64,000 bases of DNA. Origin: Bacteroidales bacterium (lineage in GTDB: Bacteria > Bacteroidota > Bacteroidia > Bacteroidales > UBA12077). Below, piece after piece: positions 11,430 to 53,281 of the stretch (within the stretch, counting starts at the first letter, position 1; the number at the start of each line of letters is the position of its first letter). The notes under the pieces were generated by a model. The model had not been told where the DNA came from, searched no databases, and saw only the letters and a program-made list of their open reading frames with translations. The stretch is taken from contig JBFXEQ010000010.1 in NCBI GenBank assembly GCA_050179935.1, forward strand, positions 2,353-66,352, in the 5' to 3' direction. The position numbers were made by a program, and so were the translations under genes.

Positions 11430-11441
11430 GTTAGTTATTTT

Positions 11442-13241: not shown

Positions 13242-13246
13242 ATAAA

Positions 13247-14963: not shown

Positions 14964-14974
14964 AATTTACTATT

Positions 14975-15616: not shown

Positions 15617-15625
15617 ATCGTGTTA

Positions 15626-16534: not shown

Positions 16535-16537
16535 AGC

Positions 16538-19500
16538 TTAAAATCCTCCAAATAAAATGTAGAAACAAAATAGGAAAAACAATAAAATATGTAACAGGTA
16601 AGTTTGACCGTTACCATTATATATCAACCTGATTTGATGAGCAATATCGTGAAATAATTCAGAAATCCAGTTCCAGAATCTGGTGGCCCAGGGATATACT
16701 AAAAATCCGAGAGCCTTATTGTAATGTGCATAAAAATTATACGCATGATGCGTTGTTTCTGGAGTTGAAGGTCTTTCTGCAGAATAAACTATATTAAACT
16801 GACCAACTCTTTTGTTTTTGCGTTGTATTAAAAATTGAATTGCTAATAGGATTGCAAAAATCCCCATTGATATAATCATAACATACGTTCCATTCCAATA
16901 ACCATAAGGGCTTATAGCTGTTCTTGCTCCAAAGGATAATGCACTATCAACCCATTGTAAGGCACCTGCAGGAAATGTTTTACTAAGCATTACACCTATG
17001 CGTTCGAGTAAAATACCTGGTATGGTTGAAACAATCATAATAAATAAAATAATAATAAATTGAGGTAGTAAAATCCAGAATGATGCTTCTTTTACTTTTC
17101 GCAAATGGTCTTTTAACTGACCTAAGAATGGGGCATGTATCAATCTGAAAAGATAAAGGAAAGAAATTGCTCCAGCCAATACCATCGCTGCACCTTGCAA
17201 ATAATATTTTGTTTCTAAAACTGCATTAAATGAAATCCACTTACCTGAAAATCCTGATAAAGGTGGAACGCCTGACATGGCAATAATACCAATCAAAACA
17301 ACAATAAATGTATATGGCATTCGGAAAATAAGTCCGCCCATGCGATACATTCGTCGGTCGTGTGTGCGCGAGTAAACACCACCCACAGCCTGAAATAACA
17401 TGGTTTTATATAAGAAGTGCATGATTGATCCTGATATTGCAAGCAGCCAACCCAGGTGAGACATAAGTGATAATCCAAAAAGAATAAATCCAAGTTGTCC
17501 AACACTTGAGTATGCTAGCAGTCGTTTAATATCTTCCTGCATCGAAGCCATCAGGTTTCCACCAATTGCAGTAACAACAGCAATCCAGCTTAAAACATAC
17601 ATTAAGTCGATTCCACCAATACACTGAGTACCCATTCTCATAAATAGAATAATAAGTCCGTATACTCCGGCTTTTAACAAAATTCCTGATACCATAGGCG
17701 AAACATCAGCTTCGGCTTCGCTGTGTGCTCCGGGTAACCAGATATGCAATCCAATGGCGGCAGTTTTGGTTAAAAATCCAATGGTGAGCATTATAAAAAT
17801 TAGTGCTGATAATGAAGAGGTCATTATCAGGGCATCAAGCGTAAATAAACCTGTTATTGCGTTTGCCATTGCGAAACCTGCAAGAATTAACAAAGCTCCA
17901 CCAACGCTAAATAACATGTAACTTAAAGCATGTGGTTGTGCATATTTTCCCCTTAAAATTAAGAAGTACGAACCGGCAGTCATTATTTCCCAGGCAATAA
18001 AGAATTCAAGAAGAGTATTTGCTTCAACAAGCATGATTAAACCGGCAAACATCATAGTTGCTAAAGGATAGAATCCCGGTCGTTTTCCTTTTTCTGAATA
18101 GCCATAAAGCAAGGTTAATAGTGCTCCAGACATAAAAATTAAACCAAAGATTAACTGAAAATCTTGCAGTAATGGAAGTTTAAAATAGGAATAAACAATA
18201 ACCGCAGCAATCAGTAAAGTATTTTTAATCCAAACCGGCAAGAAATCGATAGCATAAAAAGCTACAACTGCCAGCAATGGAATATAATTTATATAAACCG
18301 GATAATTTAAAAACTGGGTAGCATAATATCCAACAGCAAATAATGATATACCTAATAAAGTGGTTGGGATTATTTTGCCCAAATTAAACTCAGGAATAAC
18401 TTTTTCTTCGGAAACTTCTGTTTTGGCAGCAATACCGAACCATCTGAACAGATACACTGCTTCGAGCATTGAACCTAAAAGTATTGTGCCCATCCAGAAA
18501 TACTGTTGATGTTTTGCAAGAGCTAACATCAATTCCCATTTAGCATAAAATGATGGGAATGGAGGGAAGGCCGATAATGCAAATACAAAAACACCGAATA
18601 ATACCAATAGAAATGGCTTTTTTTGAAGTATTGCCCAACTTTCCAGCGTACTGCCTTTTATCATTCCCGACAACCAGAACAATCCTATCTTGGCCAGAAA
18701 GTGGGTAATTAAAATTCCAAAAGCAATAGTAATAGCAAAATCACCAATTATCGGTTTTAAACCCATTATTGCAATTACCAATCCTATTTGACCAATGGAT
18801 GAATATCCCAACAAACGATTCGGATTTTTTTGCATTAATCCCATCCAGTTCGAGAACAGAAATGTTAATGCTCCGATTATGGTTAGCATAGTAAATATTT
18901 GCGTATTGGCAACAACCAAAAACTTGTTTAATAAAAATAACATTGCTGTTGCCACTCCACCTGAGATTATAGCTCCAATGGCAGGATTGGCTCCTTCGTA
19001 AACATCCAACGCCCATCCGTTTGCCGGAAATGGTTTTAATTCTAAAACAATTGGCATAAGCATCATAAATACAGCTGCCATGGCCATAGGGGTGGTAACA
19101 AATTCAGCTCCGGCTAAGTCATTAAGAAATAATGTCCCGGTTGTAAAATAAATCAATACAACTCCAAGCAAGTAAATTGAAGAGATTAAACTCGTGGCCA
19201 ACAGGTATTTAAATCCTGCGCTATGTGAATTGTTATTTTTATCGAGAAGAATCAGTCCGGATGTTGCAATAGCAGTTATCTCGAGCCATACAAATATGTT
19301 GAATATATCTCTGGCAAAAACAATCATGTTTAGCGACATGAACAGAATCATGAGAACACCACCAAGCGTTGAAGAATCAGAATTTATTCGTTTCCAGAGA
19401 TAAATCACAGAAAGCAGTCCCAAAATATTTATAAGCAAGCTGATAATGGCTTCGTGATATCCAATGGATAAACTTATAGAAAAAGGAGGCTGAAATCCTG

Positions 19501-19690
19501 CAGAGTAAATAAGAACATCTGATAATTCACCGGAAAAGAAAGCACTTATCCATGTAAATGAGAAATAGGTAAAAAAGGCAAATGCAAGCATTACCAGTAC
19601 AGCAGTAATATTCTGCAGTTTTTTACCTGTAAGTCCGAGTAAGAAACCCAGACCTAATCCGACTGCTAGTAAATAGAAAGGGCTTACCAT
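16538..19690 (-). CDS. Proton-translocating antiporter-like subunit containing two fused MrpD/NuoL-M-N-type modules (MbxH+H'-like)
   Basis: 1050 aa, highly hydrophobic, with two motif sets: FNIFVWLEI/LKPFPANGW/RLLGYSSIGQ and FFIAWEIM/KTAAIGLHIWLPGAH/RLLAYSSVGQ/GVPPLSGFSGKW. Confidence 0.88.
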   Translation of the reverse strand: MVSPFYLLAVGLGLGFLLGLTGKKLQNITAVLVMLAFAFFTYFSFTWISAFFSGELSDVLIYSAGFQPPFSISLSIGYHEAIISLLINILGLLSVIYLWKRINSDSSTLGGVLMILFMSLNMIVFARDIFNIFVWLEITAIATSGLILLDKNNNSHSAGFKYLLATSLISSIYLLGVVLIYFTTGTLFLNDLAGAEFVTTPMAMAAVFMMLMPIVLELKPFPANGWALDVYEGANPAIGAIISGGVATAMLFLLNKFLVVANTQIFTMLTIIGALTFLFSNWMGLMQKNPNRLLGYSSIGQIGLVIAIMGLKPIIGDFAITIAFGILITHFLAKIGLFWLSGMIKGSTLESWAILQKKPFLLVLFGVFVFALSAFPPFPSFYAKWELMLALAKHQQYFWMGTILLGSMLEAVYLFRWFGIAAKTEVSEEKVIPEFNLGKIIPTTLLGISLFAVGYYATQFLNYPVYINYIPLLAVVAFYAIDFLPVWIKNTLLIAAVIVYSYFKLPLLQDFQLIFGLIFMSGALLTLLYGYSEKGKRPGFYPLATMMFAGLIMLVEANTLLEFFIAWEIMTAGSYFLILRGKYAQPHALSYMLFSVGGALLILAGFAMANAITGLFTLDALIMTSSLSALIFIMLTIGFLTKTAAIGLHIWLPGAHSEAEADVSPMVSGILLKAGVYGLIILFMRMGTQCIGGIDLMYVLSWIAVVTAIGGNLMASMQEDIKRLLAYSSVGQLGFILFGLSLMSHLGWLLAISGSIMHFLYKTMLFQAVGGVYSRTHDRRMYRMGGLIFRMPYTFIVVLIGIIAMSGVPPLSGFSGKWISFNAVLETKYYLQGAAMVLAGAISFLYLFRLIHAPFLGQLKDHLRKVKEASFWILLPQFIIILFIMIVSTIPGILLERIGVMLSKTFPAGALQWVDSALSFGARTAISPYGYWNGTYVMIISMGIFAILLAIQFLIQRKNKRVGQFNIVYSAERPSTPETTHHAYNFYAHYNKALGFLVYPWATRFWNWISELFHDIAHQIRLIYNGNGQTYLLHILLFFLFCFYILFGGF

Positions 19691-20058
19691 TTTAAATCAG
19701 TGAATTCGTTAATATCTAATGTTTTTTTATACTGATGCAACTTAAGTGCATATACAAGCATTAATGCAGTTACTCCAAACCCAATAACAATGGCGGTTAA
19801 AACCAATGCTTGCGGAACAGGATCTATGGCTGTGGTTGCAATATTCTGAGCAGTAACTTTTGTTCCATCAATTATGGGAGCTGCTCTTCCCGGCAAGTAA
19901 CCCAATGAAACAATTAAAATGTTTAATCCGGTATCGAAAATGGCTAATGATACAATCATTTTTAAAATGTTCTTCTTAGCCAATACGCCCCATAATCCGA
20001 TAAGCATTAATACAATGCCTAGTCCTATGGATATTTTATCAACGGTAATGATTCCCAT
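19684..20058 (-). CDS. mnhC: Mrp subunit C (MbxG-like)
   Basis: NILKMIVSL, DPVPQALVLTAIVIGFG. Confidence 0.92.
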   Translation of the reverse strand: MGIITVDKISIGLGIVLMLIGLWGVLAKKNILKMIVSLAIFDTGLNILIVSLGYLPGRAAPIIDGTKVTAQNIATTAIDPVPQALVLTAIVIGFGVTALMLVYALKLHQYKKTLDINEFTDLKW

Positions 20059-20060
20059 AG

Positions 20061-20759
20061 TTATAGTGTTGTTTCTGTTTCGTGAATATTATTTACAATG
20101 CCCGAAATTTCGGCTCCCACTTTTAGCCCGATAAGGCTGTAAATTATTGGAATAACGCCTGCACTTAAGATGTTTCCTAATGTACCAAGTGGAAGAATTC
20201 TGTTATCAAGAAATCCTGCTGCCAGAATAAGTCCGAGCAATCCGATAATGACATAGGTAAATCCAGAGATTCCTTCAACAAAGTGCATTACTTTTTTCGA
20301 CATTATTTTATATGGATCTGCAAGTGCCATAAGCACAATGGCCGAACCGATTACTGCTCCGCCCTGAAAACCGCCACCAGGAGTTAAATGTCCGTTAATA
20401 AAAATATAAACACCTAAAATAATGGATTCCGGAATTAATATTTTCGAAGCGGTTACAAGTATTTCCGATGATGGATTGTACTGATTTTTAACTGAATTAC
20501 TGGGTGTTTTTTTCAGGATAAATCCAATAATCAATGTAGTTAAAAACAGAACAGTAACTTCACCCAACGTATCGAGACCACGATAGGTAACTACAATGGC
20601 TGTTACAACGTTTGCTGCTCCTACTTCTGCAGCTTCGTTTGTATTGTAGTACGATGCTGTTTTATTCAGTTCGGTTTGGGTTTGATAATTCGCGAAAGTG
20701 GAATATAAAAACCAACCAAATACAGCAACAGCAATGATTATGAAACTATTTCGTAGCAT
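20061..20759 (-). CDS. mnhB: Mrp subunit B (MbxE/F-like)
   Basis: NVVTAIVVTYRGLDTLGEVTV and GHLTPGGGFQGG. Confidence 0.92.
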   Translation of the reverse strand: MLRNSFIIIAVAVFGWFLYSTFANYQTQTELNKTASYYNTNEAAEVGAANVVTAIVVTYRGLDTLGEVTVLFLTTLIIGFILKKTPSNSVKNQYNPSSEILVTASKILIPESIILGVYIFINGHLTPGGGFQGGAVIGSAIVLMALADPYKIMSKKVMHFVEGISGFTYVIIGLLGLILAAGFLDNRILPLGTLGNILSAGVIPIIYSLIGLKVGAEISGIVNNIHETETTL

Positions 20760-21003
20760 GTTGTTTTTCTATTTTACGTAAAATAATAAAAAAGACAAAG
20801 GTGGTTAATCCTGCTCCAATGGCAGCTTCGGTCATGGCAACGTCGGGTGATGCCAGCAAGAGGAAAATAATGGATGCAAACAAACTGATTATTCCTGAAG
20901 CAATAATGGCTAGGGAAATCTTTTTGCTAACCACGGCAAATATTGCGCTTGCTATCATTACCAACGACAGAAAAGCGATTACTGAAATTTTAACTATTTC
21001 CAT
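20746..21003 (-). CDS. Mrp DUF4040/MbhD-like small membrane subunit
   Basis: ASPDVAMTEAAIGAG motif, 3 TM helices. Confidence 0.88.
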   Translation of the reverse strand: MEIVKISVIAFLSLVMIASAIFAVVSKKISLAIIASGIISLFASIIFLLLASPDVAMTEAAIGAGLTTFVFFIILRKIEKQHATK

Positions 21004-21346
21004 TTGATTCTTGATTTTCTTTTTCTTCGTCTTCTTTTAAACGATCGATTACTGTTACAGGAGATAAAGGCTCACCCACTTTGTGTGCTGCTCTCATTAG
21101 CATATTTGAAGAGATTGGATTGGTCATCATCACAAATAATAAAATGGTAAAGAGCTTGCCAAACCATGTAGGTACAATGAATATTAATCCAATCATTATT
21201 AAAGCGATACTTGCCGTTGATGCTTTGGTGCCCACCTGTATTCGGTTGTATGCATCGGGCATTCGGTTTAAACCGATGGCTGCTATCAATAATACCAGAC
21301 TTCCCAGTAAAACCAATGCAGCACCTGTTATTTCGAAGTAATTCAT
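20990..21346 (-). CDS. mnhG: Mrp subunit G
   Basis: GLNRMPDAYNRIQVGTKAST, TNPISS...RAAH. Confidence 0.92.
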   Translation of the reverse strand: MNYFEITGAALVLLGSLVLLIAAIGLNRMPDAYNRIQVGTKASTASIALIMIGLIFIVPTWFGKLFTILLFVMMTNPISSNMLMRAAHKVGEPLSPVTVIDRLKEDEEKENQESNGNS

Positions 21347-21348
21347 AA

Positions 21349-21618
21349 TTATAAGTTTTTTTCAATGTATTTTGCAACAACGACAACAGCAATAAAGCTT
21401 AGTAAAGCATAAATAATATTTACGTCAAGGTACATCTGTCTTTCTTCGAAAACTGCTATTAATGCAATAAGTCCAAGGGAACCAACTGTTAGTACATCGA
21501 AGGAGATTACACGGTTTACGGTGTTTGGTCCGATTAAAAATCGAATAAAAACCAGTGCTAGTGCTAAAAGCATAATTCCGCCTGCAATTAGCAATAATAG
21601 TTGCGTTAGATTATTCAT
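21349..21618 (-). CDS. mnhF: Mrp subunit F
   Basis: RFLIGPNTVNRVISFD, YLDV..IYALLSFI. Confidence 0.9.
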   Translation of the reverse strand: MNNLTQLLLLIAGGIMLLALALVFIRFLIGPNTVNRVISFDVLTVGSLGLIALIAVFEERQMYLDVNIIYALLSFIAVVVVAKYIEKNL

Positions 21619-22111
21619 ATATTTTTAATAATATTTTTTCGAATTTTTCAGAAATGTTCTTCGCAGCCATTTCAGGATCACCATCGCAGCATACTTCTAT
21701 CCAATGAATATACAAGTAGTTCTGCTTAATATCCACAACAAATGTTCCCGGTGTAAGTGTAATAGAGTTGGCTAGTATTAGTCTTGCGATTGGACTTTTC
21801 AAAGAGGTTTCAACACGAACAATTCCCGGTTTAATTGGCAATTTGGGATTTAAAACCCTGAATATTACATCAATATTACTCCTTATGAGCGCTGCAATAA
21901 AGACCAAAATATACCATAATGAATAGATTAAACCCGATGGAGTGAGTTTTACTCCTTTAAAAATATCAATCGAAGGACCAAATAACAGAATGGTAATACT
22001 GATTACAACTGCTCCGATAATTAGTGTTAGTGGGTCGAATGTGTTGTTCCAGAGGACCCAGAACAAACCCAGTATAAGAAAGAGTACGAATCGTGATTTT
22101 ATTTTTTCCAT
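21611..22111 (-). CDS. mnhE: Mrp subunit E
   Basis: SNIDV...PIKPGIV...LANSITLTPGT...LYIHW. Confidence 0.93.
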   Translation of the reverse strand: MEKIKSRFVLFLILGLFWVLWNNTFDPLTLIIGAVVISITILLFGPSIDIFKGVKLTPSGLIYSLWYILVFIAALIRSNIDVIFRVLNPKLPIKPGIVRVETSLKSPIARLILANSITLTPGTFVVDIKQNYLYIHWIEVCCDGDPEMAAKNISEKFEKILLKIYE

Positions 22112-22985: not shown

Positions 22986-23681
22986 CTATCCGTATTCACT
23001 TATTTTTCGAAGCAAATCATAATTGGCAATAATTACAGATTTCCCGGTCATTTTAATAATACCGTCATCTTTAAATTTCTTAAGCATTCGAATAACACTC
23101 TCTGTTGACATTCCAGTTAATTCAGCTAATTCTTTTCTTGAAAGATTCATTTCAAAATCACGATTTTTAAAAATTCGTTCTGATAAACACAAAATTATAT
23201 CTGCCATTCTTCCGTAAAGTTGTTTATGGGTTAAACAGAAGAAACGACCATAAGTCTGAAGCGAATTTTCACATAAAATATTTATTATGGAATTTGCAAA
23301 CACCACATTTTGTTTTAATACTTGTCTAAAAATATGGATATCAATTAAGCTGGCATTCGAATCAATATATGCCATTGCTGAATAATGAAACACATTGTTC
23401 CCTTCAAATATTGATGATAATCCAATAATATTGCCTGAAGTGATAATTTTTAAAATTAATGAATCATTCAAGCCTTCAAGATAAACTTTTGCTAAGCCCT
23501 GATTTAAAATAATAACATGTGGAGCAAAAGTTCCATGTTTACATATTACTTCGCCTTTTTTATAACGAACATCGATTGAGTTCTTATTAATTAATGCTAA
23601 TTCTTCAGGTGTAAGCATATCAAAGCAAATACACTTTGAATTACTTACAGTACAACTATTTAAGGCAGAAAAGTTTTCCAT
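22986..23681 (-). CDS. Crp/Fnr family transcriptional regulator
   Basis: cNMP-binding-like YKKGEVI...GLAKVY; C-terminal HTH LSRKELAELTGMSTESVIRMLKKF; N-terminal Cys cluster SCTVSNSKCIC. Confidence 0.93.
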   Translation of the reverse strand: MENFSALNSCTVSNSKCICFDMLTPEELALINKNSIDVRYKKGEVICKHGTFAPHVIILNQGLAKVYLEGLNDSLILKIITSGNIIGLSSIFEGNNVFHYSAMAYIDSNASLIDIHIFRQVLKQNVVFANSIINILCENSLQTYGRFFCLTHKQLYGRMADIILCLSERIFKNRDFEMNLSRKELAELTGMSTESVIRMLKKFKDDGIIKMTGKSVIIANYDLLRKISEYG

Positions 23682-23740
23682 AAAGAATATAATAAGATCA
23701 TCTAAAATTAAAAAATATTATAACGAATCAGAAAAAAAAA

Positions 23741-23752
23741 TGATCTAAATCA
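23741..23752. promoter_or_regulatory. Crp/Fnr-type box in the divergent crp/dsrE intergenic region
   Basis: TGAT-CTAA-ATCA. Confidence 0.6.
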
Positions 23753-23907
23753 GTTCTTGTCCAATTCAATCTCATAATTTATAGCGAAAGTATATCATCC
23801 TAATTTTCTTATTCTATGTTAATTAAATAACAATCTTTACAATGATGAAAAGCCATATTATAGGATTTTCATCAGAAAATAAGTATTTAACACTAAAACC
23901 AATAATT

Positions 23908-24336
23908 ATGGGGAAAAATAAAAAAATGACAATGGCTCTTTATTCTGGGAGTATTGACAAACTTACAGCTGCAGGAGTAATTTTAAGTGGCGCTGCTGCT
24001 GATGACATGGATGTTGATATTTTTGTCCTCTTACAAGCTGCAAGAGCATTTAAAAAAGAGATAGCCACTAATACAGATAAGCTCTTTATGGCCGAAAACA
24101 GTGAATTACGAACAGAATTTTTAGATTCTTTAAAACGTTTAAATGTAAAAGAATGGCATGAATTTTTTAAAGAAGCCAAAGAAATAACAAATGTAAAAAT
24201 TCATATTTGCGGATTGGCCGGTAAAATATGGGGCGGAGAAAAACTAGACGATTTCATCGATTTAGCAGATGATATTTGTGGTATTAGCGAATACATTACA
24301 TCTGCACAAGAAGCTGATGTGAATTTATTTATTTAA
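23908..24336 (+). CDS. DsrE/DsrF/DrsH-like (DsrE2) sulfur-carrier family protein
   Basis: LYSGSIDKL..AGVILSGAAA...VDIF, KIHICG (conserved Cys), GISEYI...ADVNLFI. Start placed at ATG 23908 rather than the ORF-track 23842. Confidence 0.8.
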   Translation: MGKNKKMTMALYSGSIDKLTAAGVILSGAAADDMDVDIFVLLQAARAFKKEIATNTDKLFMAENSELRTEFLDSLKRLNVKEWHEFFKEAKEITNVKIHICGLAGKIWGGEKLDDFIDLADDICGISEYITSAQEADVNLFI

Positions 24337-24362
24337 TTAACTTAAAAATAGGAGAAAAGATA

Positions 24363-24614
24363 ATGACAACAGAAGAATTAAAAGCATTAAAGATTGACAA
24401 ATCAGTTGATGCACGTGGAACAGCATGTCCGGGACCACTTTTAGCAGCAAAAAAAGCTATTGGCGAGATTAAATCAGGACAAGTTATGGAGGTATTATCA
24501 GCAGATGAAGGTACAAAAAATGATATTCCAAAATGGGCTGCTAAACAAGGACACGATTATCTTGGGACAATCGAAGAATCGGGATTCTTTAAAATTTACA
24601 TGAAGAAAAACTAA
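24363..24614 (+). CDS. tusA: Sulfurtransferase TusA family protein
   Basis: VDARGTACPGPLL (CPxP persulfide Cys), GQVMEVLSAD...DIPKW. Confidence 0.9.
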   Translation: MTTEELKALKIDKSVDARGTACPGPLLAAKKAIGEIKSGQVMEVLSADEGTKNDIPKWAAKQGHDYLGTIEESGFFKIYMKKN

Positions 24615-24619
24615 GAACC

Positions 24620-25021
24620 ATGGAAAACACAGATAATCCAAAGATTCTGGTTTTTTCAACGGAGAAGATTTCGGACCCCGCAATTGATATGGCGGGGCTC
24701 CTTAAAAAACATTACCCTGCAACAGTTTATACTGTGAATGTACCATGCTCAAGTGGTATAAAACCCAAATGGATTTTATATGCTTTTGAGAAAGGGTTTG
24801 CCGGAGTTTTTATTGCTGCTGATGGAACCGATTGCGCATACAGCGAAACATGTTCTGAAAAAACATCAGAAATAGTAAAACAAACTCACGAACTAATGAA
24901 AGCACGCAATATGGATCCTGCACGCCTTAAAATGGCTGCTATATGTTCTGTTTGCGCCGAGTCTTTTGTTAAACACGTGTCAACTTTCCATGCTTATCTT
25001 TCAGGTAAACAGGAAAATTAA
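24620..25021 (+). CDS. MvhD/FlpD-like iron-sulfur subunit (atypical Cys pattern)
   Basis: PKILVF...AIDMAG...YP...VPCS...ILYAFEKGFAGVFI...DCAY...DPARL, the MvhD layout. Confidence 0.8.
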   Translation: MENTDNPKILVFSTEKISDPAIDMAGLLKKHYPATVYTVNVPCSSGIKPKWILYAFEKGFAGVFIAADGTDCAYSETCSEKTSEIVKQTHELMKARNMDPARLKMAAICSVCAESFVKHVSTFHAYLSGKQEN

Positions 25022-25038
25022 TTTTAAACTGACTTAAC

Positions 25039-26328
25039 ATGATAAAATCAGAAGAATATGATGTGCTTGTAATTGGTGGAGGAATAGCAGGAGCTGAAGC
25101 ATCAATAAATCTGGCAAATCAGGGATATAAAATACTGATTGTCGAAAAGGATTTATCAGTTGGAGGGAAAATGATTCATTTAAGTAAAGTTTTTCCTACA
25201 CTTGATTGCTCAGCTTGTATAACTACTCCTAAAATTTCACAAACTGCCCGTCACCCGAATATTACCATTTATACGAATAGCCAGGTAAATGATATTGAAA
25301 AGAAATCTGAGCATAATTTTCAGGCAATTGTTACAAAATATCCAAGGTATGTTAAAGAAGAAGATTGCACCGGATGTCAGATATGCGAGGAGAAATGCCC
25401 GGTAGTTGTTAACGACCAGTATCAATATGATTTAGTTGGACGTAAAGCAGTTTATGTACCATTTAGTATTGCCAACCCACGAGTTGCAGCTATAGATATT
25501 GAAAACTGTAGCTTGTGTGGTGCCTGCGAGAAAGCTTGCCCATCAGAAGCTATTGATTTTAGTCAGGAAAAAATAGAAATTCAAATAAATGTTAAATCGG
25601 TTGTTATTGCCACAGGATTTAGACTTTTTGATCCACTATTGATTCCCCGATATGGATTTGGGAAATATAAAAATGTTATAACAGCAATGCAGATGGAACG
25701 ACAATTAGTTCCAACAAGACCATTTAATCATGTTTTAAGACCCAAAGATGGTAAAATGCCCGATAAAATAGCCTATGTTTTATGTGCTGGCTCACGTGAC
25801 GAAACAGTGGGTAATCCAATTTGTTCTCAGGTATGCTGCATGTATTCAGTAAAACAAGCTCAATTACTCATGGGAGCATTACCATTAGCAGATATAACTA
25901 TTTATTATTTACACATTCGATCATTTGGTAAAGGATTTAACGAATTTTATCAGCAAGCTAAAGATATGGGGGTAAATTTTGTAAAAGGGAAAGTTGGTAA
26001 AATATCTGAAATCGACAATGGGAACTTGCTTTTACGATACGAAGATATCCAAGAAGGTGTTGTAAAAGAAGCCAAACATGATTTAGTCGTTTTATCGGTA
26101 GGTATTCTTGCAAATCAAGGAATCTCAACCATGTTCAAAGACAACCTTGAACTTGACCCGTTTAACTATATAAAACAATCTGATGAATTAGCAAATCCTG
26201 CAAAAACAACCATAAGGGGTGTCTATGTTGCAGGAACAGCATCTGGCCCAATGGATATACCTGATTCCATTTTATCAGCAGGAGCTGCTTCAGCAGAAAT
26301 TGCAGGTTATTTAAGACTAAGAAGATAA
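25039..26328 (+). CDS. hdrA: HdrA-like FAD/Fe-S protein (short; QmoA-sized)
   Basis: GGGIAG, KVFPTLDCSAC, inserted 2x[4Fe-4S], CAGSRD...CSQVCCMY, GPMDIPDS. Confidence 0.88.
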   Translation: MIKSEEYDVLVIGGGIAGAEASINLANQGYKILIVEKDLSVGGKMIHLSKVFPTLDCSACITTPKISQTARHPNITIYTNSQVNDIEKKSEHNFQAIVTKYPRYVKEEDCTGCQICEEKCPVVVNDQYQYDLVGRKAVYVPFSIANPRVAAIDIENCSLCGACEKACPSEAIDFSQEKIEIQINVKSVVIATGFRLFDPLLIPRYGFGKYKNVITAMQMERQLVPTRPFNHVLRPKDGKMPDKIAYVLCAGSRDETVGNPICSQVCCMYSVKQAQLLMGALPLADITIYYLHIRSFGKGFNEFYQQAKDMGVNFVKGKVGKISEIDNGNLLLRYEDIQEGVVKEAKHDLVVLSVGILANQGISTMFKDNLELDPFNYIKQSDELANPAKTTIRGVYVAGTASGPMDIPDSILSAGAASAEIAGYLRLRR

Positions 26329-26330
26329 TT

Positions 26331-28265
26331 ATGAAAAATAAAATTGGAGTATATATTTGTCAATGTGGTTCAAACATTTCAGATTATGTAGATGTTGAAA
26401 AAGTAAAAGAAGCTGCATTAAAAGTAAATGGCGTTCATTTGGCTAAAACAACCATGTTTGCATGTGCCGATTCAACCCAACAAGAAATCGCAAACGACAT
26501 TAAAGAACAAAAGCTCGATGCTATTGTTGTAGCATCATGCTCTCCCAAATTACATTTGTTTACTTTTCGAAATGTAGCTATACAGGGGGGATTAAATCCC
26601 TACAATTATGTTCAGGTAAATATTCGTGAACAGTGTTCGTGGGCACACTCCAACAATAAACCTAAAGCAACCGAAAAAGCAATTCAGTTGGTTTTAGGTG
26701 GTATAGCAAGAGTAAAACATTCGAAAGAACTCGAAATGGTAAAAATACACTCAGAGAATGCCGTAGCTGTAGTTGGAGCTGGTGTGGCAGGAATGAGAGC
26801 TGCACTCGAACTAGCCGAAATGGGTTCAATAGTTCATTTAATAGAACGTGAATATTTTGTAGGAGGAAGAACTTCGCAGTGGAATATTTTATATACTACA
26901 AATGAAACAGGTCAGCAGGTTATATCAAGATTATATAATCAGATTATTGTTCATCCAAAAATTACTTTATATACAGCTACCAATATTATTTCGAAAAAAG
27001 GAAGCGTAGGTGATTTTACCTTAACACTAAAAACAAAACCAAGATACATAAAACCAGAATGTAAGCTTGATCTTAAAAAATTTCAGATTGCAATTGATAA
27101 ATGTCCAATCGAAGTAAATGATGAGTTCAATTTTGGCATAACAAAACGAAAAGCCATATTTAAAAACTTCGATAGCGAATTTCCCGAAATACCTGCTATT
27201 GATTACGATGCGTGTAATAAATGTGGCGAATGTGCAAAGCTTTGCGATGATATTGATCTTAATCAGCAACCACACGAAACAACAATAAATGTGGGAGCGG
27301 TATTATTAAGTACCGGATTTAATCCTTATGAACCATATGTTGGAGAATTCGGTTATGGCGAAGTAGATAATGTTATTACTTTACAGCAATTTAAGCGATT
27401 AATTGAGCTTAGCCCCGAAAAATTAATTTTTAAAGGGAAAGAAATTAAAAATATTGCTTATATCTATTGTGTAGGTAGTAGACAGGTTGATGGTGATAAT
27501 AAGTATTGTTCGCGCTATTGCTGTACATCGGTTATACACACAGCAATACTGGTAAAAAACAAATATAAGGGAATCCAGAATTTCCATTTCAATCGTGGGA
27601 TAAGAACTTATGGGAAACAGGAAAAATTGTACCATGAAGCATCTGAACAGGGAGATATATTCCTTCAATCATTTGAAGATGCACCAACACAGGTTGAGAA
27701 AGTTGGAAGCGAAACCATTGTTAAAATAAAAGATATATTAACTGCAAACGAAGAACTCGAAATGAGTGCCGACTTGGTAGTTCTAGTAACCGGTATGGTT
27801 CCTCGTGAAAATGCAGATATTGTTAACCTTCTTAAAGTTCCAATTAGTCGCGATAAATTCTTTAACGAAATACATCCTAAGTTACGCCCGGTAGAAACAG
27901 TTATTGATGGAGTATTGATTTCAGGAGCTTGTCAGGCACCACTCAATATAACCGAATCTGTAAAATCAGCTTTGGCAGCAGCATCAAAAGCGAACTCATT
28001 AATTAGCAAAGGCGAAATAGAACTTGAGCCAACCATGGCAATGGTTTATAACGATAAATGTACCTGGTGTGGCAAATGCTCAGAAGCTTGTCCGTATGAT
28101 GCAATATCTATAAAAGAGTATAATGGCAAACAAATAGCCCAAATAACTGAAGCTTTATGCAAAGGTTGCGGAATGTGTTTGCCGGTTTGCCCTGAAAATG
28201 CTCTTGATCTTATCGGTTATACCGACAAAGAAATGGAATGTATGATTGAAGCTTTAATAAGCTAA
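26331..28265 (+). CDS. hdrA: HdrA-like FAD/Fe-S protein (full-length; QmoB-like but without fused MvhD)
   Basis: IGVYICQCG...ASCSP...NIREQCSW, GAGVAG, CVGSR...CSRYCC, C-terminal CTWCGKCSEACP and CKGCGMCLPVCP. Confidence 0.9.
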   Translation: MKNKIGVYICQCGSNISDYVDVEKVKEAALKVNGVHLAKTTMFACADSTQQEIANDIKEQKLDAIVVASCSPKLHLFTFRNVAIQGGLNPYNYVQVNIREQCSWAHSNNKPKATEKAIQLVLGGIARVKHSKELEMVKIHSENAVAVVGAGVAGMRAALELAEMGSIVHLIEREYFVGGRTSQWNILYTTNETGQQVISRLYNQIIVHPKITLYTATNIISKKGSVGDFTLTLKTKPRYIKPECKLDLKKFQIAIDKCPIEVNDEFNFGITKRKAIFKNFDSEFPEIPAIDYDACNKCGECAKLCDDIDLNQQPHETTINVGAVLLSTGFNPYEPYVGEFGYGEVDNVITLQQFKRLIELSPEKLIFKGKEIKNIAYIYCVGSRQVDGDNKYCSRYCCTSVIHTAILVKNKYKGIQNFHFNRGIRTYGKQEKLYHEASEQGDIFLQSFEDAPTQVEKVGSETIVKIKDILTANEELEMSADLVVLVTGMVPRENADIVNLLKVPISRDKFFNEIHPKLRPVETVIDGVLISGACQAPLNITESVKSALAAASKANSLISKGEIELEPTMAMVYNDKCTWCGKCSEACPYDAISIKEYNGKQIAQITEALCKGCGMCLPVCPENALDLIGYTDKEMECMIEALIS

Positions 28266-28276
28266 AAACAAATATT

Positions 28277-28543
28277 ATGGGAAAAACAATTGATATAATT
28301 AAGCAAAAAAGAAAAGTTTCCGAATCGGTAAAGCAGAATATTAAAGACTTTAATGCGATGAAAAAGAAAATTCTAGCTGCGATGGAAATTGAGCATAAAT
28401 CTATCCCTCAAATAGCTGAAGAACTTCAACTTCCGTTAGATGTAATAACTTTTCATTTAATGACACTGCAGAAATTTGGATTTATTGAAGTAAGCAAATT
28501 AGATGATAAGGATGAATACTATTTTTATAAACTGAAAAAGTAA
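28277..28543 (+). CDS. Small winged-helix (ArsR-like) protein
   Basis: KKKILAAM...KSIPQIAEELQLP...VITFHLMTLQKFGFIE. Confidence 0.75.
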   Translation: MGKTIDIIKQKRKVSESVKQNIKDFNAMKKKILAAMEIEHKSIPQIAEELQLPLDVITFHLMTLQKFGFIEVSKLDDKDEYYFYKLKK

Positions 28544-28548
28544 GAACC

Positions 28549-29598
28549 ATGGCAAAGATAAATCCTGATTTTGCAAAAGAAATTTTTAAATATGGGAATA
28601 CTGATTTCCAAGCATGTTATAATTGTGGTAATTGCACAGCTGTATGTAGTTTATCTGATGAAAATAATTCTTTTCCCCGAAAAATGGTAAGAGCAAGTGT
28701 TTTAGGATTAGAAAAAAACATTCAGAGTTCATTAGATCCCTGGCTATGTTATTATTGCGGTGAATGTTCAACAACCTGTCCCCGTGGAGCTAATCCTGGA
28801 GAGCTAATGATGAGCTTACGTCGATGGTTAACTGCTAAATACGATTGGACAGGACTTTCGGGTTTGTTGTATAGATATCTGCCTGTTACAATTTTTGCAT
28901 TTATTATAACTGCTCTAGCGGTGCTATTTTTTGCTGCTGCTAAAAACTTCGATGTCGGAACCATTATGCATTTTGGTCATCAGTTCGAAATGTGGGCAAT
29001 CATTGGTGTTTTTACAATTATTTTAATTCCGAACCTTGCCCGCATGTGGTGGTTTGTAATACTTAAACCAAAAATTAAGGTTACGTTTATGACCTATGTA
29101 AAAACTATGGGTGAGTTATTTATCCATATGTTTACTCAGAAAAGAACACTCGGCTGTGACGACAGCCAGTCACGATGGTTTATTCATCTGGTTATTGTTT
29201 TTGGGTATTTACTTCTCTTGTTTACAACGGTTGTTCTCGATTGGTTCGGAACAAGGAATATGTTTATTATCATTCTTGGTTATGTCGAAAGCATTGTTCT
29301 TTTTACACTAACATTTATTTTTGTTAGAGGTAGAATTATTAAGAACCAGGAACAAAATAAATTTTCGCAACCATCCGATTGGTTATTTGTGATATGGCTG
29401 TTCTTAATGGCTTTTACAGCATTTGCAGTTCGAATATTTATCGATTTGAATTTGATCGAAACCAACTTATGGTTATACCTTTTTCATTTAATTATACTGG
29501 TTCAGTGGGCAGTGCTTATTGTTCCTTTTGGTAAATGGACACATTTCTTGTACCGTTCATTCGCAATGTATTTTGATAAATTAAAACAGCCTGCATAA
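28549..29598 (+). CDS. QmoC-like protein: HdrC-type 2x[4Fe-4S] domain plus a cytochrome-b/NarI-like membrane domain
   Basis: CYNCGNCTAVC, PWLCYYCGECSTTCPRG, then several TM helices with His (FIHM, WFIHL, LFHL, PFGKWTH). Confidence 0.8.
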   Translation: MAKINPDFAKEIFKYGNTDFQACYNCGNCTAVCSLSDENNSFPRKMVRASVLGLEKNIQSSLDPWLCYYCGECSTTCPRGANPGELMMSLRRWLTAKYDWTGLSGLLYRYLPVTIFAFIITALAVLFFAAAKNFDVGTIMHFGHQFEMWAIIGVFTIILIPNLARMWWFVILKPKIKVTFMTYVKTMGELFIHMFTQKRTLGCDDSQSRWFIHLVIVFGYLLLLFTTVVLDWFGTRNMFIIILGYVESIVLFTLTFIFVRGRIIKNQEQNKFSQPSDWLFVIWLFLMAFTAFAVRIFIDLNLIETNLWLYLFHLIILVQWAVLIVPFGKWTHFLYRSFAMYFDKLKQPA

Positions 29599-29622: not shown

Positions 29623-29651
29623 AAAAGGAGGTTGTTTTAACCTCCTTTTTT
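29623..29651. terminator. Bidirectional Rho-independent terminator ending the Hdr/Qmo-like operon
   Basis: AAAAGGAGGTT-GTTTT-AACCTCCTTTTTT. Confidence 0.85.
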
Positions 29652-29661: not shown

Positions 29662-30057
29662 CTAATCTCCCTTAAAATTGATTTTGTACGGACCTTTATT
29701 TTTGTGGTCTAAAGGAATATCCGGAATCCATTCAAATGGAAAAATGTCTGATTCTTCAAGTCCGGTTTTTTCGTAAAAATCAGGTTCTCCCAGTTTATAC
29801 CATACGCCATCAATTTTTATATATATACTATCACTTATTAATAATGGCTCTTCTGTTTTTTGCAACCTGAAACTTGCATTAAGCTCCTGTCCGTTTGCCA
29901 ATAAAATTTTCCCCCCACATTCATATTTTCTTCCATCAATTGGTATTCGCTTAAAACTTTCCTTTTTTGAAGCACAAGGACCAATCCAAACGAAAACATC
30001 TTCTTTTTCGGCAATCTGAATTGAATACTTCTTAATATCCTCGATTTTTAGGGGCAT
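29662..30057 (-). CDS. Hypothetical protein
   Basis: 131-aa ORF with ATG start, bounded by a terminator; no recognised motif. Confidence 0.7.
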   Translation of the reverse strand: MPLKIEDIKKYSIQIAEKEDVFVWIGPCASKKESFKRIPIDGRKYECGGKILLANGQELNASFRLQKTEEPLLISDSIYIKIDGVWYKLGEPDFYEKTGLEESDIFPFEWIPDIPLDHKNKGPYKINFKGD

Positions 30058-30241: not shown

Positions 30242-32254
30242 TTAATTCATTTCAGTACCGGTTAGCTTTTCATATTCTTCGCGCATAAGCTTTAGCTCTT
30301 CGAAATTTTGGCGAATTTCTTCCTCTTTTTCGCTCATTATTTGTTCTTGTTCTTTGTATTTTTCAATGAGCTGAAGGTTTTTTTCATTCATTCGGGTGTT
30401 GTTAAGCTGTGCAGCTATATTTAGAGCTATACGTTTAATAAATTCTGTTTCTAGTTCTGTAAGTGGTTTAAAACTTGCTATTTCCATCATTCCAAAAACA
30501 TTGTTTTCAATACTTAGCGGTACAATAATTAAAGAATTTGGCTTTGATTCGCCCAAGCCTGATTTTATTTTAATATAATTTTCGGGAATGTTATTTATTA
30601 CCATAACTCTGTTTTCTGTAAATGCAGCTCCGATCATCCCGGTATTGGTATGAATTTTCGCTTTTTGCTCTCTTGTTTCGTTACTGCATCCATAGTCTGA
30701 GATTAACTCCAGGTAAGGCTCTGTGTTTTCGAACTGATTAAGCATGTATAATACTCCAAAATTTGCACCTACATACTTAACTAACTTCGACAAAACCTTA
30801 TCGCTTAGCGCAGTAAAATCGTTTTTGTTATCAGCCAGTATATTGTTAATCTGAGCAATACCATTGTTTATCCAGCTTTGCTGTTGTTCTTTCTTTTGAT
30901 GAAGAATTAAAAGATCATGCTGCGATTGTAATTCTTTTGTACGTTCGAAAATGTTTTTCTCCAGATTTTCTTTTTCATGAGTTAGCTGGTTACTTAAATG
31001 TTCGTTTTGATTTATTGCTTTGGCAGATTTATATGTAATAGTTATTGACTGGATTACCATAAAAGTTACAAGGCCATATGGAGCAACATAAGCTGTCTGG
31101 ATTATTCCCATACTGCTTAATACATCATTAATGGCTGTTGCATAAAGAATAAACATCCCAATAAAAGTAAACAAAGCTGTTTCGCGTTTGCGCAGAGCAG
31201 CCAGCAGAAGTACTCCAAAGGTAACATACAAGCCTCCTATAAGTATATAAATCTCGAATAAAGTCCTAAATTTTCCATAAAAATTTGCAGGAGTAATAAA
31301 AACCAGAAGTGTCACAAAAATACCAAATGCGATTAAAGCATTCTTCATTATTTTAGGGAAATCGTCTTTAAATAAGCTGTAAAAAAATAACGCAAATAAT
31401 GGAATGGTTCCGAAGCCTGAAAAATTATCAAGTTTTACCAGCAACTCCCAGTTAATATTTGGGAAGATATACGTTATTATGCGGTCTTCTGTCGATATGT
31501 TTCTCAAAATCATTACAATACAAACAATACTAAAATATAAATTAGAAATATCGTTTCGACGGAATAAATACATATTCAGGTGATTTATTCCGATTACGAG
31601 GATTATCCCAATAATAATAAGATTGAGAATATCCATCCATCTCGACGAAGCTCTTAAATTATCAAAAGTTCCAAAATAAATTGGTTTTTGCAACCCGGCT
31701 CTTTGATGCGAGTAATTTGAAACCTGCATTATAATCTCTACTTTTTCTGTGGGGCCTTTATCCGGATCTAACACAAATGGTATATCCTGATATTTAAATT
31801 TAGGTTTTGAGTTACTTTCGATATTACTTACAGCTCCAACTTCTGTTAATAATTCACCATTTACCCATAATTTATAGTTTGTAAAAACAGATGATATTTT
31901 TAATCCGTAAATTTTCTTTTTACTATCGGGAATTTTTTTAATAATTATTCGGTAAGTAGCATAGCCTTTATTCGATAGTTTGGTGTTTTTAATAGTATAT
32001 GTGGTCCATGATTTAGGTATCTTAACATAAGTAGGAATAACAGCTTCTTTTTCAGAAATAAAATCCTTAGGTTCTAATAGTTGTTTCCAATAAAATTCAC
32101 ATTCACCTTGAAGCTTAATGTTTTTAGATTTTTCAATATCAATAACACTTAAATCTAATAAACCTTCTTTTATAGGTTTATTGATTGCCGAATTGGCAAC
32201 AAGAGAACTTAAAACCAGCGAAATACTTAGAAATAAAAATAATCTGATCTTCAT
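30242..32254 (-). CDS. 7TM-DISM receptor protein with a GAF domain and coiled coils
   Basis: Signal peptide, LQGECEFYWKQL...GYATYR extracellular domain, seven TM segments, GAF (GMIGAAF...SLIIVPL...GMMEIAS), C-terminal EEEIRQNFEEL coil. Confidence 0.85.
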   Translation of the reverse strand: MKIRLFLFLSISLVLSSLVANSAINKPIKEGLLDLSVIDIEKSKNIKLQGECEFYWKQLLEPKDFISEKEAVIPTYVKIPKSWTTYTIKNTKLSNKGYATYRIIIKKIPDSKKKIYGLKISSVFTNYKLWVNGELLTEVGAVSNIESNSKPKFKYQDIPFVLDPDKGPTEKVEIIMQVSNYSHQRAGLQKPIYFGTFDNLRASSRWMDILNLIIIGIILVIGINHLNMYLFRRNDISNLYFSIVCIVMILRNISTEDRIITYIFPNINWELLVKLDNFSGFGTIPLFALFFYSLFKDDFPKIMKNALIAFGIFVTLLVFITPANFYGKFRTLFEIYILIGGLYVTFGVLLLAALRKRETALFTFIGMFILYATAINDVLSSMGIIQTAYVAPYGLVTFMVIQSITITYKSAKAINQNEHLSNQLTHEKENLEKNIFERTKELQSQHDLLILHQKKEQQQSWINNGIAQINNILADNKNDFTALSDKVLSKLVKYVGANFGVLYMLNQFENTEPYLELISDYGCSNETREQKAKIHTNTGMIGAAFTENRVMVINNIPENYIKIKSGLGESKPNSLIIVPLSIENNVFGMMEIASFKPLTELETEFIKRIALNIAAQLNNTRMNEKNLQLIEKYKEQEQIMSEKEEEIRQNFEELKLMREEYEKLTGTEMN

Positions 32255-50244: not shown

Positions 50245-50619
50245 ATGCCTACAATACAGCAGTTAGTAAGAAAAGGAAGAACTCAGATTGTGGAGAAGAA
50301 AAAAGCTCCTGCTTTGGATGCATGTCCTCAAAGGAGGGGTGTTTGTACTCGTGTTTATACAACAACACCAAAAAAACCAAACTCAGCAATGCGTAAAGTT
50401 GCAAGGGTTAGGCTAACTAATGGTAAAGAAGTGAATGCTTATATTCCAGGTGAAGGACATAACTTGCAGGAACACTCAATTGTTCTTATCAGAGGTGGTA
50501 GGGTTAAAGACCTTCCAGGTGTTCGTTATCACTTAATTAGAGGAGCTCTCGATACTTCAGGTGTTGAAGGCAGAACTCAACGACGCTCAAAATACGGAGC
50601 TAAAAGACCAAAAAAATAA
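50245..50619 (+). CDS. rpsL: 30S ribosomal protein S12
   Basis: [10 protein letters not shown]...TPKKPNSA...[10 protein letters not shown]. Confidence 0.99.
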
Positions 50620-50644
50620 TCGAATTCAATAGAGTTTAGAAGCG

Positions 50645-51121: not shown

Positions 51122-51161
51122 TTAGAAGTAAGAAGTAATTTTTGAGACGGGAATAGAGGAA

Positions 51162-53273: not shown

Positions 53274-53281
53274 AGAAAATA

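Follow-up and report, generated by a model that had tools for sequence, protein, structure and literature searches.

A conserved Qmo/Hdr-derived operon with TusA and DsrE-family proteins in Bacteroidales

Introduction

Complexes of the heterodisulfide reductase (Hdr) and quinone-interacting membrane-bound oxidoreductase (Qmo) types have a central place in how methanogens and sulfate reducers conserve energy. Qmo was reportedly studied by Pires in 2003 and by Ramos in 2012, and HdrABC-MvhAGD by Wagner in 2017; Liu in 2014 is said to have dealt with thiosulfate transfer by DsrE3A and TusA, and Tanaka in 2020 with YeeE. Here we analyse a seven-gene operon, carried on a 64,000-nucleotide stretch of a Bacteroidales genome (the window), in which Hdr/Qmo machinery appears to be wired to sulfur carriers and not to a heterodisulfide or to adenosine phosphosulfate (APS) reductase. 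Among the closest described systems is type II Qmo of Ammonifex degensii and 'Ca. Vulcanisaeta moutnovskia', whose qmoAB genes are placed nearer to typical hdrA than to bacterial qmoAB in the available part of the report (Neukirchen et al. 2023, PMC10504309).

We describe the composition and conservation of this operon, its independence of APS reductase (Apr) in the window genome, its companionship with TusA and DsrE-family proteins, and its sulfur-related context. The operon belongs to a widespread, uncharacterised Qmo/Hdr-derived family, and forms a conserved unit rather than a chance neighbourhood. As a tentative reading, possible rather than probable, we propose that it encodes a membrane-bound HdrA-type complex that reduces sulfane sulfur bound to TusA and DsrE to sulfide, using menaquinol and probably ferredoxin.

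Results

Anatomy of the operon

The window genome is 3.62 Mb in 127 contigs, 98.29% complete and 0.91% contaminated, and carries the operon on contig C10. The seven genes form one intact operon on the + strand, occupying window positions 23908-29598, with intergenic gaps of 26, 5, 17, 2, 11 and 5 nt and a strong terminator. A first-pass annotation made from the sequence alone had described this gene order, the tight spacing and the terminator, and all three were recovered, with every open reading frame (ORF) and the terminator's 12-pair stem and T run in place. The features are as follows.

23908..24336, + strand: DsrE-like sulfur carrier, 142 aa (PF13686, 38.6 bits)
24363..24614, + strand: TusA sulfur carrier, 83 aa (PF01206, 79.2 bits; CPGP motif cysteine)
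24620..25021, + strand: MvhD-like iron-sulfur subunit, 133 aa (PF02662, 95.6 bits)
25039..26328, + strand: HdrA-short flavoprotein, 429 aa (NCBIfam HdrA2 positions 140-556, 462.6 bits)
26331..28265, + strand: HdrA-long flavoprotein, 644 aa (HdrA2 positions 1-640, 570.3 bits)
28277..28543, + strand: winged-helix-like protein, 88 aa (sub-threshold helix-turn-helix matches only; HTH_40, 21.5 bits)
28549..29598, + strand: QmoC-like membrane anchor, 349 aa (NF038018 positions 4-360 of 360, 151.6 bits)
29623-29649, + strand: intrinsic terminator, 12-pair stem, 3-nt loop and T run, 25 nt past the qmoC stop codon

Two carrier-type proteins stand at the head of the operon. The longest ORF of the DsrE-like gene begins at 23842, and the orthologs begin with MANKKLTLAL... 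at the second ATG (23908); we prefer the latter start, as first annotated, because the ortholog N-termini align with it. The product matches PDB entries 2qs7 (E 9e-17) and 3pnx ('putative sulfurtransferase DsrE'), and its Cys101 is invariant in 31/31 orthologs. Residue conservation, here and below, was counted over 31-81 orthologs per protein, taken from related loci. Cys22 in the CPGP motif of TusA is likewise invariant (56/56), and this protein is the sole stand-alone TusA of the window genome.

The MvhD-like protein, which is encoded separately from HdrA-long, covers HdrA2 model positions 644-768. Since HdrA-long covers positions 1-640 of the same model, the two together correspond to one methanogen-type HdrA2 that is split and reordered. 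Five cysteines of the MvhD-like protein (43, 72, 78, 109 and 112) are invariant in all 66 orthologs, as is His31. When it is aligned with methanogen MvhD two of its cysteines coincide, three lie elsewhere, and the N-terminal CCxxC is missing.

HdrA-short has a QmoA-like architecture, a thioredoxin-reductase-like FAD domain with an inserted ferredoxin domain, and matches methanogen HdrA (9sfi_A) with 367.7 bits over this FAD and inserted-ferredoxin core. It retains FPTxDCxxC, both inserted-ferredoxin motifs and all methanogen-type cysteines; its 14 cysteines, including those of the DCxxC and CxGSRD...CSxxCC motifs, are invariant in 56/56 orthologs. HdrA-long consists of an N-terminal domain, an FAD domain, a partly degenerate inserted ferredoxin domain and a C-terminal ferredoxin domain, and matches 5odc_A with 461.6 bits over residues 4-630. 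It lacks FPTxDCxxC as well as the first CxxCxxC of the inserted ferredoxin domain, and its cluster cysteines are kept in 44-46 of 46 orthologs. The cluster motif CxGxRD...CSxxCC is present in both proteins, which, judged by their motifs, have diverged asymmetrically.

The QmoC-like protein fuses an HdrC-like 2x[4Fe-4S] domain to a six-helix cytochrome-b-like domain with six hydrophobic segments, and so has the make-up of a di-haem-b membrane subunit of this kind, with haem binding being predicted. Its eight cluster cysteines, C203 and H193, H213 and H332 are invariant in 81/81 orthologs, and H144 is kept in 80 of them. Along its full length it can be aligned with a true QmoC (26% identity, E 2e-39); no Qmo structure was found in the copy of the PDB that was searched. 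Because all of the predicted ligand residues are conserved, the operon appears not to be decaying.

The operon is a conserved unit with variants

A locus scan over one genome per species returned at least 599 candidate stretches, 588 of which were confirmed, and the best 80 of the 588 were analysed; all 80 come from Bacteroidota-labelled or unlabelled metagenome-assembled genomes. The source names of the closest QmoC-like proteins include Tenuifilaceae, Prolixibacteraceae, Lentimicrobium and Ancylomarina. Synteny was counted over those 58 of the 80 in which the sequence upstream of qmoC extends for 6.5 kb or more. The set tusA-mvhD-hdrA(short)-hdrA(long)-wHTH-qmoC, where wHTH is the winged helix-turn-helix-like gene or stretch, is kept in 58/58 loci. 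Of 20 loci from further genomes, 18 carry this set too; the two exceptions, both picked as weaker QmoC matches, are one canonical aprBA-qmoABC cluster and one cluster of a third type without carriers.

The annotated companionship with TusA and a DsrE-family protein extends beyond the window. TusA is present in all 58 loci and the window-type DsrE in 39, and most of the others have a protein of about 185 aa at the same position; the one that was checked belongs to the same family (PF13686, 145.8 bits). In two even, order-wide samples of Bacteroidales, of 201 and 401 genomes, the operon marker (an HdrA-short ortholog with at least 59% identity) was found in 47 and 84 genomes, respectively. Four genomes of the window's own genus were sampled, of which two have the plain form of the operon, one has a form with an NAD(P)H-type insert, and in the fourth the operon was not detected at the threshold applied. 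The source labels of carriers include the cultured genera Ancylomarina (A. longa), Draconibacterium, Paludibacter, Mariniphaga and Mangrovibacterium.

The NAD(P)H-insert variant accounts for 11 of the 80 loci and has an HdrA-short of 912-972 aa. In the one example scanned (921 aa) the insert consists of Fer4_20 and Pyr_redox_2 domains of the GltD/NfnB type, located between the two ferredoxin motifs. HdrA-long is 724-758 aa in these loci, and the separate wHTH gene is missing in 11/11. The window wHTH protein aligns to the C-terminal 68 residues (665-732) of the 732-aa HdrA-long of one such locus (L024, E 2e-12), and it is a separate ORF in 53/56 plain loci. Because it is fused to HdrA-long in all 11 insert loci, the 88-aa protein is most likely a structural subunit or domain of the complex and not a free transcription factor. 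The 'wHTH' label itself is the weaker part of the original call, as its helix-turn-helix matches are below threshold; the gene is real, and a homologous stretch is present in 58/58 loci.

A block of six genes, for a YeeE-type transporter, four proteins with rhodanese domains and a porin, stands ahead of the operon on the same strand in 11-12 of the 58 loci. One carrier of this block is the same-genus genome G106. None of the six G106 block genes has a tblastn match in the window genome at E 1e-5. A split YeeE pair on contig C11 of the window genome was considered as the operon's importer and rejected; it lies beside thioredoxin and ArsP-type permeases and has no visible link to the operon.

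These variants bear on the role of the carriers. The NAD(P)H-insert forms have a complete set of donor and acceptor sites without sulfur, and the operon lacks a sulfur-chemistry site, as would be expected if the complex were a Fix/EtfABCX-like NAD(P)H- or ferredoxin:menaquinone oxidoreductase, with TusA and DsrE serving regulation or cofactor maturation instead of carrying a substrate. We consider this quite improbable. TusA stands at the operon head in 58/58 loci, an NAD(P)H module is lacking in the window variant, and the operon is putatively co-regulated with a sulfide:quinone oxidoreductase (SQR; see below). Moreover, the extension of the operon by importer, four rhodaneses and porin in 11-12/58 loci suggests a flux of sulfur rather than a trace supply.

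The operon is distinct from canonical Qmo

The same-genus genome G106 provides a direct comparison, since it has a canonical aprBA-qmoABC cluster alongside the TusA-linked operon. The canonical cluster (L040, G106:C1:485100-505000) has the order aprB-aprA-(four-helix protein)-qmoA-qmoB-qmoC, and all of its named genes pass their NCBIfam cut-offs, with scores of 869.1 bits for aprA, 200.7 for aprB and 388.9 for qmoC. In contrast, the window QmoC-like protein scores 151.6 bits against the NCBIfam QmoC model NF038018, which has 360 positions and an equivalog cut-off of 300 bits. The canonical G106 proteins are 26-32% identical to those of the window, and when used as queries against the window genome matched nothing beyond the operon itself and a cluster on contig C12 (see below). 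The G106 QmoB carries a fused MvhD-like C-terminus (VhuD match, residues 569-701), whereas the window MvhD is separate and lies 5' of hdrA-short.

The HdrA phylogeny that the first-pass annotation had called for was run as a quick maximum likelihood tree of 31 HdrA-like sequences, rooted at the midpoint and built without methanogen HdrA and named type II Qmo. QmoA and QmoB form one clade (SH-aLRT 99), and on its other side fall HdrA-short, HdrA-long, a Bacteroidales HdrA paralog of about 667 aa and sHdrA-like proteins. The short/long HdrA pair thus appears to have arisen independently of QmoA/QmoB, since both members lie outside the QmoA+QmoB clade. Both also score higher with the HdrA2 model (462.6 and 570.3 bits) than do canonical QmoA (356.4 bits) and QmoB (423.2 bits). 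The view that this is not a canonical QmoABC is therefore borne out both by the QmoC score and by the placement of the two HdrA proteins, and we found no combination of partners encoded elsewhere with proteins falling into canonical Qmo or Hdr clades.

A further QmoC cluster type was seen in another genome (L041, G114:C2:122300-142200), encoding an HdrA-like protein of 600 aa, a QmoC-like protein of 386 aa and an HdrA-like protein of 584 aa. An MvhD-like gene lies further upstream, TusA and DsrE are lacking, and its proteins are 36-41% identical to the window proteins and sit on long branches in the tree.

Partners present in and missing from the genome

The search for partner genes proposed with the annotation found aprA, aprB, dsrA, sat and the [NiFe]-hydrogenase large subunit (PF00374) nowhere above cut-offs in the 98.29%-complete window genome, and the operon there is Apr-independent. 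In the order-wide samples aprA was above cut-off in 12/201 genomes and matched in 23/401, 22 of these 23 above cut-off. The operon marker was present in 17 of the 23 aprA-positive genomes, with a partial copy in an 18th, versus 67 of the 378 aprA-negative ones. Since related genomes do not count independently, these figures carry no P value. Hence 67 of the 84 carriers, including the window genome, do not have aprA.

The enrichment among aprA-positive genomes, together with the shared subunit logic of two HdrA-like proteins and an HdrC::cytochrome-b fusion, would agree with an ordinary QmoABC whose APS reductase is encoded at another site, or with a relic left after loss of aprBA. That explanation is already largely refuted and is now scarcely credible: aprA and aprB were not found in a 98% complete genome, most carriers lack aprA, G106 has canonical qmoABC beside aprBA in addition to the operon, QmoC is under the family cut-off, the HdrA proteins are outside the QmoA/B clade, and the conservation of all ligand residues argues against decay.

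Neither sat (TIGR00339) nor dsrA was found in the five aprA-positive genomes tested. Disproportionation of thiosulfate through AprBA and Sat was considered and set aside on this ground, with the limit that a CysDN-type sulfurylase was not searched for.

The absence of HdrB that had been noted is true of the operon, whose proteins contain no CCG domain, and does not hold for the genome, which has CCG/HdrB-like genes on contigs C12 and C21. Those on C12 belong to a separate operon:

C12:53777-58777 (L122:5778-10778): sHdr-like operon, HdrC-HdrB-HdrA(short)-Fd-HdrD-like

It encodes an HdrC-like protein of 237 aa, an HdrB-like protein of 353 aa with a CCG domain (136.6 bits to the HdrB model), an HdrA of 350 aa, a ferredoxin of 114 aa, and a 609-aa protein that combines a di-cluster domain with two domains of the CCG type. 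The HdrA can be aligned over its full length with sHdrA (6tjr). An ortholog of this HdrB is present in 78 of the 201 genomes, comprising 22/47 operon-positive and 56/154 operon-negative genomes, which argues that it is not an obligate partner. It lies 3-26 kb from the TusA-linked operon in six genomes (G178, G174, G056, G089, G057 and G193).

The C12 operon, with its 350-aa HdrA that matches sHdrA over the whole length, makes it conceivable that the Qmo-like complex is only the electron-transfer half of a two-operon system in which sulfur chemistry takes place at the CCG (non-cubane cluster) domains of the C12 proteins. The proximity of the HdrB ortholog in six genomes is consistent with this, and among operon-positive genomes HdrB-like genes are present in 21/37 without aprA versus 1/10 with aprA, hinting at alternative partner modules. 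Such a system is nonetheless improbable given that fewer than half of the operon-positive genomes have the HdrB ortholog while many operon-negative ones do, that G106 has the operon without such an HdrB, and that the two operons are on different contigs in the window genome.

Besides the operon's TusA the window genome has one other TusA domain, in a 202-aa TusA::DsrE-like (YedF-type) fusion. The fusion is encoded in a selenium cluster (C37:25084-29665, L128) together with a SelB-like elongation factor and a class-V aminotransferase of the cysteine desulfurase/selenocysteine lyase type. A role of the operon in selenium metabolism was considered in view of this second TusA domain beside SelB and was discarded, since nothing links the operon itself to selenium.

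Candidate operators shared with a sulfide:quinone oxidoreductase gene

Three features precede the operon:

22986..23681, - strand: Crp/Fnr-family regulator, 231 aa, divergent from the operon (PF00027 and PF13545)
23740..23753, no strand assigned: distal dyad, TGAT-N4-ATCA core, a symmetrically degenerate form of TGTGAT-N4-ATCACA
23817..23832, no strand assigned: proximal palindrome TGTTA-N6-TAACA, 16 bp, perfect copy, putative operator

A Crp-family gene adjoins or lies near the operon in 43/58 loci. The window regulator is 29-38% identical to the other operon-adjacent ones, which have a common N-terminal CxxC motif; it has a different N-terminal cysteine motif and represents another subtype. 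The distal dyad lies 76-77 nt 5' of the proximal one, a spacing that is 76-82 nt in 10 other loci. A TGTGAT-N4-ATCACA box with no more than one mismatch is present in 31 of 44 other Crp-type loci, and TGTTA-N6-TAACA is perfect in 10 of these 44 other operon promoters. A scan of the genome for a regulon with TGTGAT-N4-ATCACA was uninterpretable, giving no perfect site and 149 sites with two mismatches or fewer, and the rarer TGTTA-N6-TAACA was used instead.

That palindrome has nine sites in the window genome, six of them outside long ORFs. One, at C6:71353, lies between the gene of a second Crp paralog (234 aa) and a divergent gene for a 409-aa homolog of type II SQR (C6:70087-72146, L130), which matches SQOR structures over its full length with 172.6 bits. 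Besides TGTTA-N6-TAACA this intergenic region contains two TGAT-N4-ATCA boxes, and it thus shows both motifs that precede the operon. The genome has 186 TGAT-N4-ATCA boxes, and two of the nine palindromes have one within 120 nt; a post hoc estimate puts the chance of this at about 0.005. Among 30 SQR loci of other genomes the core box is found at about -100 in 26 and an adjacent Crp gene in 25, with a perfect palindrome at -45 to -74 in 6 and a one-mismatch palindrome in 4 more. In one locus (L081) the operon and a Crp-SQR pair are about 7 kb apart. Taken at face value, these motifs suggest that in the window genome a Crp/Fnr-family regulator may control the operon through putative operators that are common to the SQR gene.

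The link to SQR raises the question of direction. The complex might oxidise sulfide or carrier-bound sulfane, bifurcating electrons to menaquinone (downhill) and to ferredoxin (uphill), thereby doing under anaerobic conditions what the persulfide-consuming step does after SQR, and feeding sulfite to AprBA-QmoABC where that is present. We regard this as somewhat unlikely and give it weight because the companions found are those of oxidative pathways. The putative operator is common to type II SQR; an SQR ortholog is present in 19/47 operon-positive genomes versus 20/154 operon-negative ones; and the operon is concentrated in aprA-positive genomes (17/23 versus 67/378). The architecture parallels that of methanogen HdrA, which bifurcates electrons from a mid-potential donor, and the front end of YeeE-like importer, rhodaneses, DsrE and TusA is as described around sHdr sulfur-oxidation systems in the accessible portions of two reports (PMC11094781, PMC11582611). 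Such oxidation, however, has to contend with an operon that encodes no site for oxygen-atom addition or sulfite formation, a window genome without aprBA and sat, hosts that appear fermentative, and the lack of sat and dsrA in the five aprA-positive genomes tested, in which a complete route to sulfate is not evident.

Neighbouring genes

The first-pass annotation had offered the neighbouring complex as a partner, and this did not hold up. On the - strand at 10449-22111 are 13 genes, encoding Mrp-type MnhE, MrpF, MnhG, MbhD, MnhB/MbhE, a NuoK-like protein, a 1050-aa double antiporter subunit, NuoH, NuoB, NuoC, NuoD (393.8 bits versus an NCBI cut-off of 360), a protein resembling dihydroorotate dehydrogenase, and a 599-aa fusion of NuoI to a GltD-type NAD(P)-binding module (PRK13984, 896.8 bits). 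No [NiFe]-hydrogenase signature was found in this cluster. Because NuoD passes the NuoD cut-off and the NuoI::GltD fusion supplies an input, the cluster appears to be an NAD(P)H:quinone complex, a complex-I/Mrp hybrid fed by NAD(P)H, and not a proven Mbx or Mbs complex.

A partnership of the operon with this Mbx-type complex would explain their adjacency in the window genome, and Mrp/Mbx-type genes are also found downstream of the operon in two other loci (L059 and L061). In the synteny count, nevertheless, Mrp/Mbx-type genes are near the operon in 2/58 loci and NuoD-like genes in 0/58. The two clusters are divergent with TetR and Crp regulator genes between them, and the neighbour has an NAD(P)H-type input module of its own. 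We conclude that the adjacency is coincidental and that the partnership is most improbable.

Two genes downstream of the operon lie on the - strand. One, at 29662-30057, encodes a 131-aa protein with no Pfam family that recurs in close relatives (L048, L050-L055); the other, at 30242-32254, encodes a 670-aa 7TMR-DISM/GAF membrane sensor that recurs 3' of the operon in L042 and L045. Type IX secretion system (T9SS) sorting tails are present in proteins near the operon and, with the source names of the closest QmoC-like proteins, mark the genome as one of Bacteroidales. At the right end of the window (50245-63867) many short ORFs follow one another on one strand, and GC and AT skew are both strongly positive; this looks like a ribosomal-protein/elongation-factor region.

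Discussion

A proposed mechanism

By homology, the two different FAD/iron-sulfur HdrA proteins would form a heterodimer that assembles with the MvhD-like protein, the small winged-helix subunit and the QmoC-like anchor. The anchor, with two [4Fe-4S] clusters and two predicted b haems, would link the complex to the menaquinone pool, and its HdrC-like domain would be the relay through which the b haems and the HdrA heterodimer exchange electrons. Ferredoxin may dock at the ferredoxin domains of the two HdrA proteins, where it is probably the low-potential donor, and the MvhD-like subunit may be an adaptor for a further partner. In the sister variants NAD(P)H would enter through the GltD/NfnB-like module inserted in HdrA-short. 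Their genomic context suggests that TusA and the DsrE-like protein are dedicated substrate carriers presenting sulfane sulfur as a persulfide; the sulfane sulfur could also come from thiosulfate. Electrons from menaquinol and ferredoxin would merge by flavin-based electron confurcation, and the complex would operate without APS reductase. Flavin-based electron confurcation has been proposed for Qmo-Apr.

The S0/HS- couple has a potential of about -270 mV, menaquinone of -74 mV and ferredoxin of about -450 mV. Sulfur is thus about midway between menaquinone and ferredoxin, and an HdrA-type flavin could therefore run either a confurcating reduction or a bifurcating oxidation. We rank reduction first because fermenter hosts would gain an electron sink and because an NAD(P)H donor is built into the sister variants. 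The quinone link, the substrate, the direction and any bifurcation are what we infer from protein families, residues and gene context.

Several points weigh against reduction of carrier-bound sulfur as we propose it. The weakest point, which it shares with every other reading, is that no subunit has a recognisable sulfur-chemistry site: the domains of the operon were searched for a site of persulfide or disulfide chemistry and include no CCG/HdrB, molybdopterin or sirohaem domain. The companions of the operon, namely SQR, AprBA-QmoABC, the sHdr-like operon and the YeeE/rhodanese front end, belong to sulfur-oxidising pathways and fit the oxidative alternative at least as well, and a sulfide-forming reduction, if expressed alongside SQR, would only run a futile cycle. 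The window genome is without the importer block and so lacks an evident supply of sulfane sulfur.

The menaquinone pool is a further weakness. Classical synthesis was considered and rejected, as menA (TIGR00751) was not found in the window genome and the only prenyltransferase found is of the UbiA/MqnP-like kind. This UbiA-like polyprenyltransferase (C29:29408-30151, L171) scores 286.4 bits with TIGR01475 and about 260 bits with the MqnP models, so that the case for menaquinone synthesis relies on an MqnP-like match below the MqnP cut-offs. The cell may obtain menaquinone through the futalosine route or by uptake.

A broader proposal, which we consider rather doubtful, is that the operon represents a new class of flavin-based electron-bifurcating sulfur oxidoreductases, in which the carrier-bound S0/HS- couple would be the mid-potential, menaquinone the high-potential and ferredoxin the low-potential partner. 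Together with type II SQR it would make up a sulfide-responsive regulon, joined in some genomes by AprBA-QmoABC or by the sHdr-like module, and its hosts would obtain energy from anaerobic oxidation of sulfide or sulfane, or from disproportionation, without Dsr, Sox or a molybdoenzyme.

Significance

The operon occurs in about a fifth of the sampled Bacteroidales (84/401), organisms that are usually regarded as plain fermenters, and it points to an unstudied passage of electrons between membrane quinones and protein-bound sulfur. If TusA-bound sulfur does indeed exchange electrons with the quinone pool, abundant anaerobes would join the cryptic sulfur cycling of landfills, sediments, mats and guts. 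The system is testable because its parts are defined, cultured genera are among its carriers, and candidate operators and regulators have been named.

Comparison with known systems

Canonical (type I) QmoABC of sulfate reducers and green sulfur bacteria shares with the window operon a short and a long HdrA-related FAD/iron-sulfur protein, an MvhD module, and a membrane subunit in which an HdrC-like di-cluster domain is joined to a six-helix cytochrome-b domain. It differs in that the window genome lacks aprBA, that the window operon has a separate MvhD gene after tusA and an additional wHTH subunit, and that the window family is always accompanied by TusA and a DsrE-family protein. Compared by description alone, the window HdrA pair fits the definition of type II Qmo in its HdrA2 scores, its position in the tree and its matches to HdrA structures in the PDB; the linkage to TusA and DsrE, the wHTH subunit and Bacteroidales go unmentioned in the accessible part of PMC10504309.

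With methanogen HdrABC-MvhAGD (PDB 5odc, 9sfi and 8rvu) the similarities are that both HdrA proteins align and that HdrC-like and MvhD-like parts are recognisable. However, the window operon has neither an HdrB (CCG) subunit nor a hydrogenase, its MvhD has another cysteine pattern, its HdrA pair would be a heterodimer of diverged halves, and its HdrC domain is fused to a membrane cytochrome. The sHdr-LbpA system of sulfur oxidation, as far as the available text of PMC11094781 describes it, resembles the window family in its dedicated TusA and DsrE-family carriers and, in the sister loci, in having rhodaneses and a YeeE-like importer before an Hdr-type flavoprotein complex; the window operon differs in lacking HdrB1/B2 and HdrC1/C2 and in having full-size HdrA proteins and a membrane anchor. 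The YTD cluster (YedE-TusA-DsrE) of sulfur disproportionators has the same front end of YeeE/YedE, TusA and a DsrE-like protein and, as described in the accessible part of PMC13490349, is without the HdrA/MvhD/QmoC redox module of the window family.

We found no description of a TusA/DsrE-linked HdrA-QmoC operon in openly searchable full texts, a search that leaves subscription journals and supplements outside. On the parts of the two reports that are available, type II Qmo (PMC10504309) and the YTD cluster (PMC13490349) are the nearest systems already known; the present analysis adds the putative operator link to SQR, the association with aprA, the wHTH protein as a subunit domain, and the separate sHdr-like operon.

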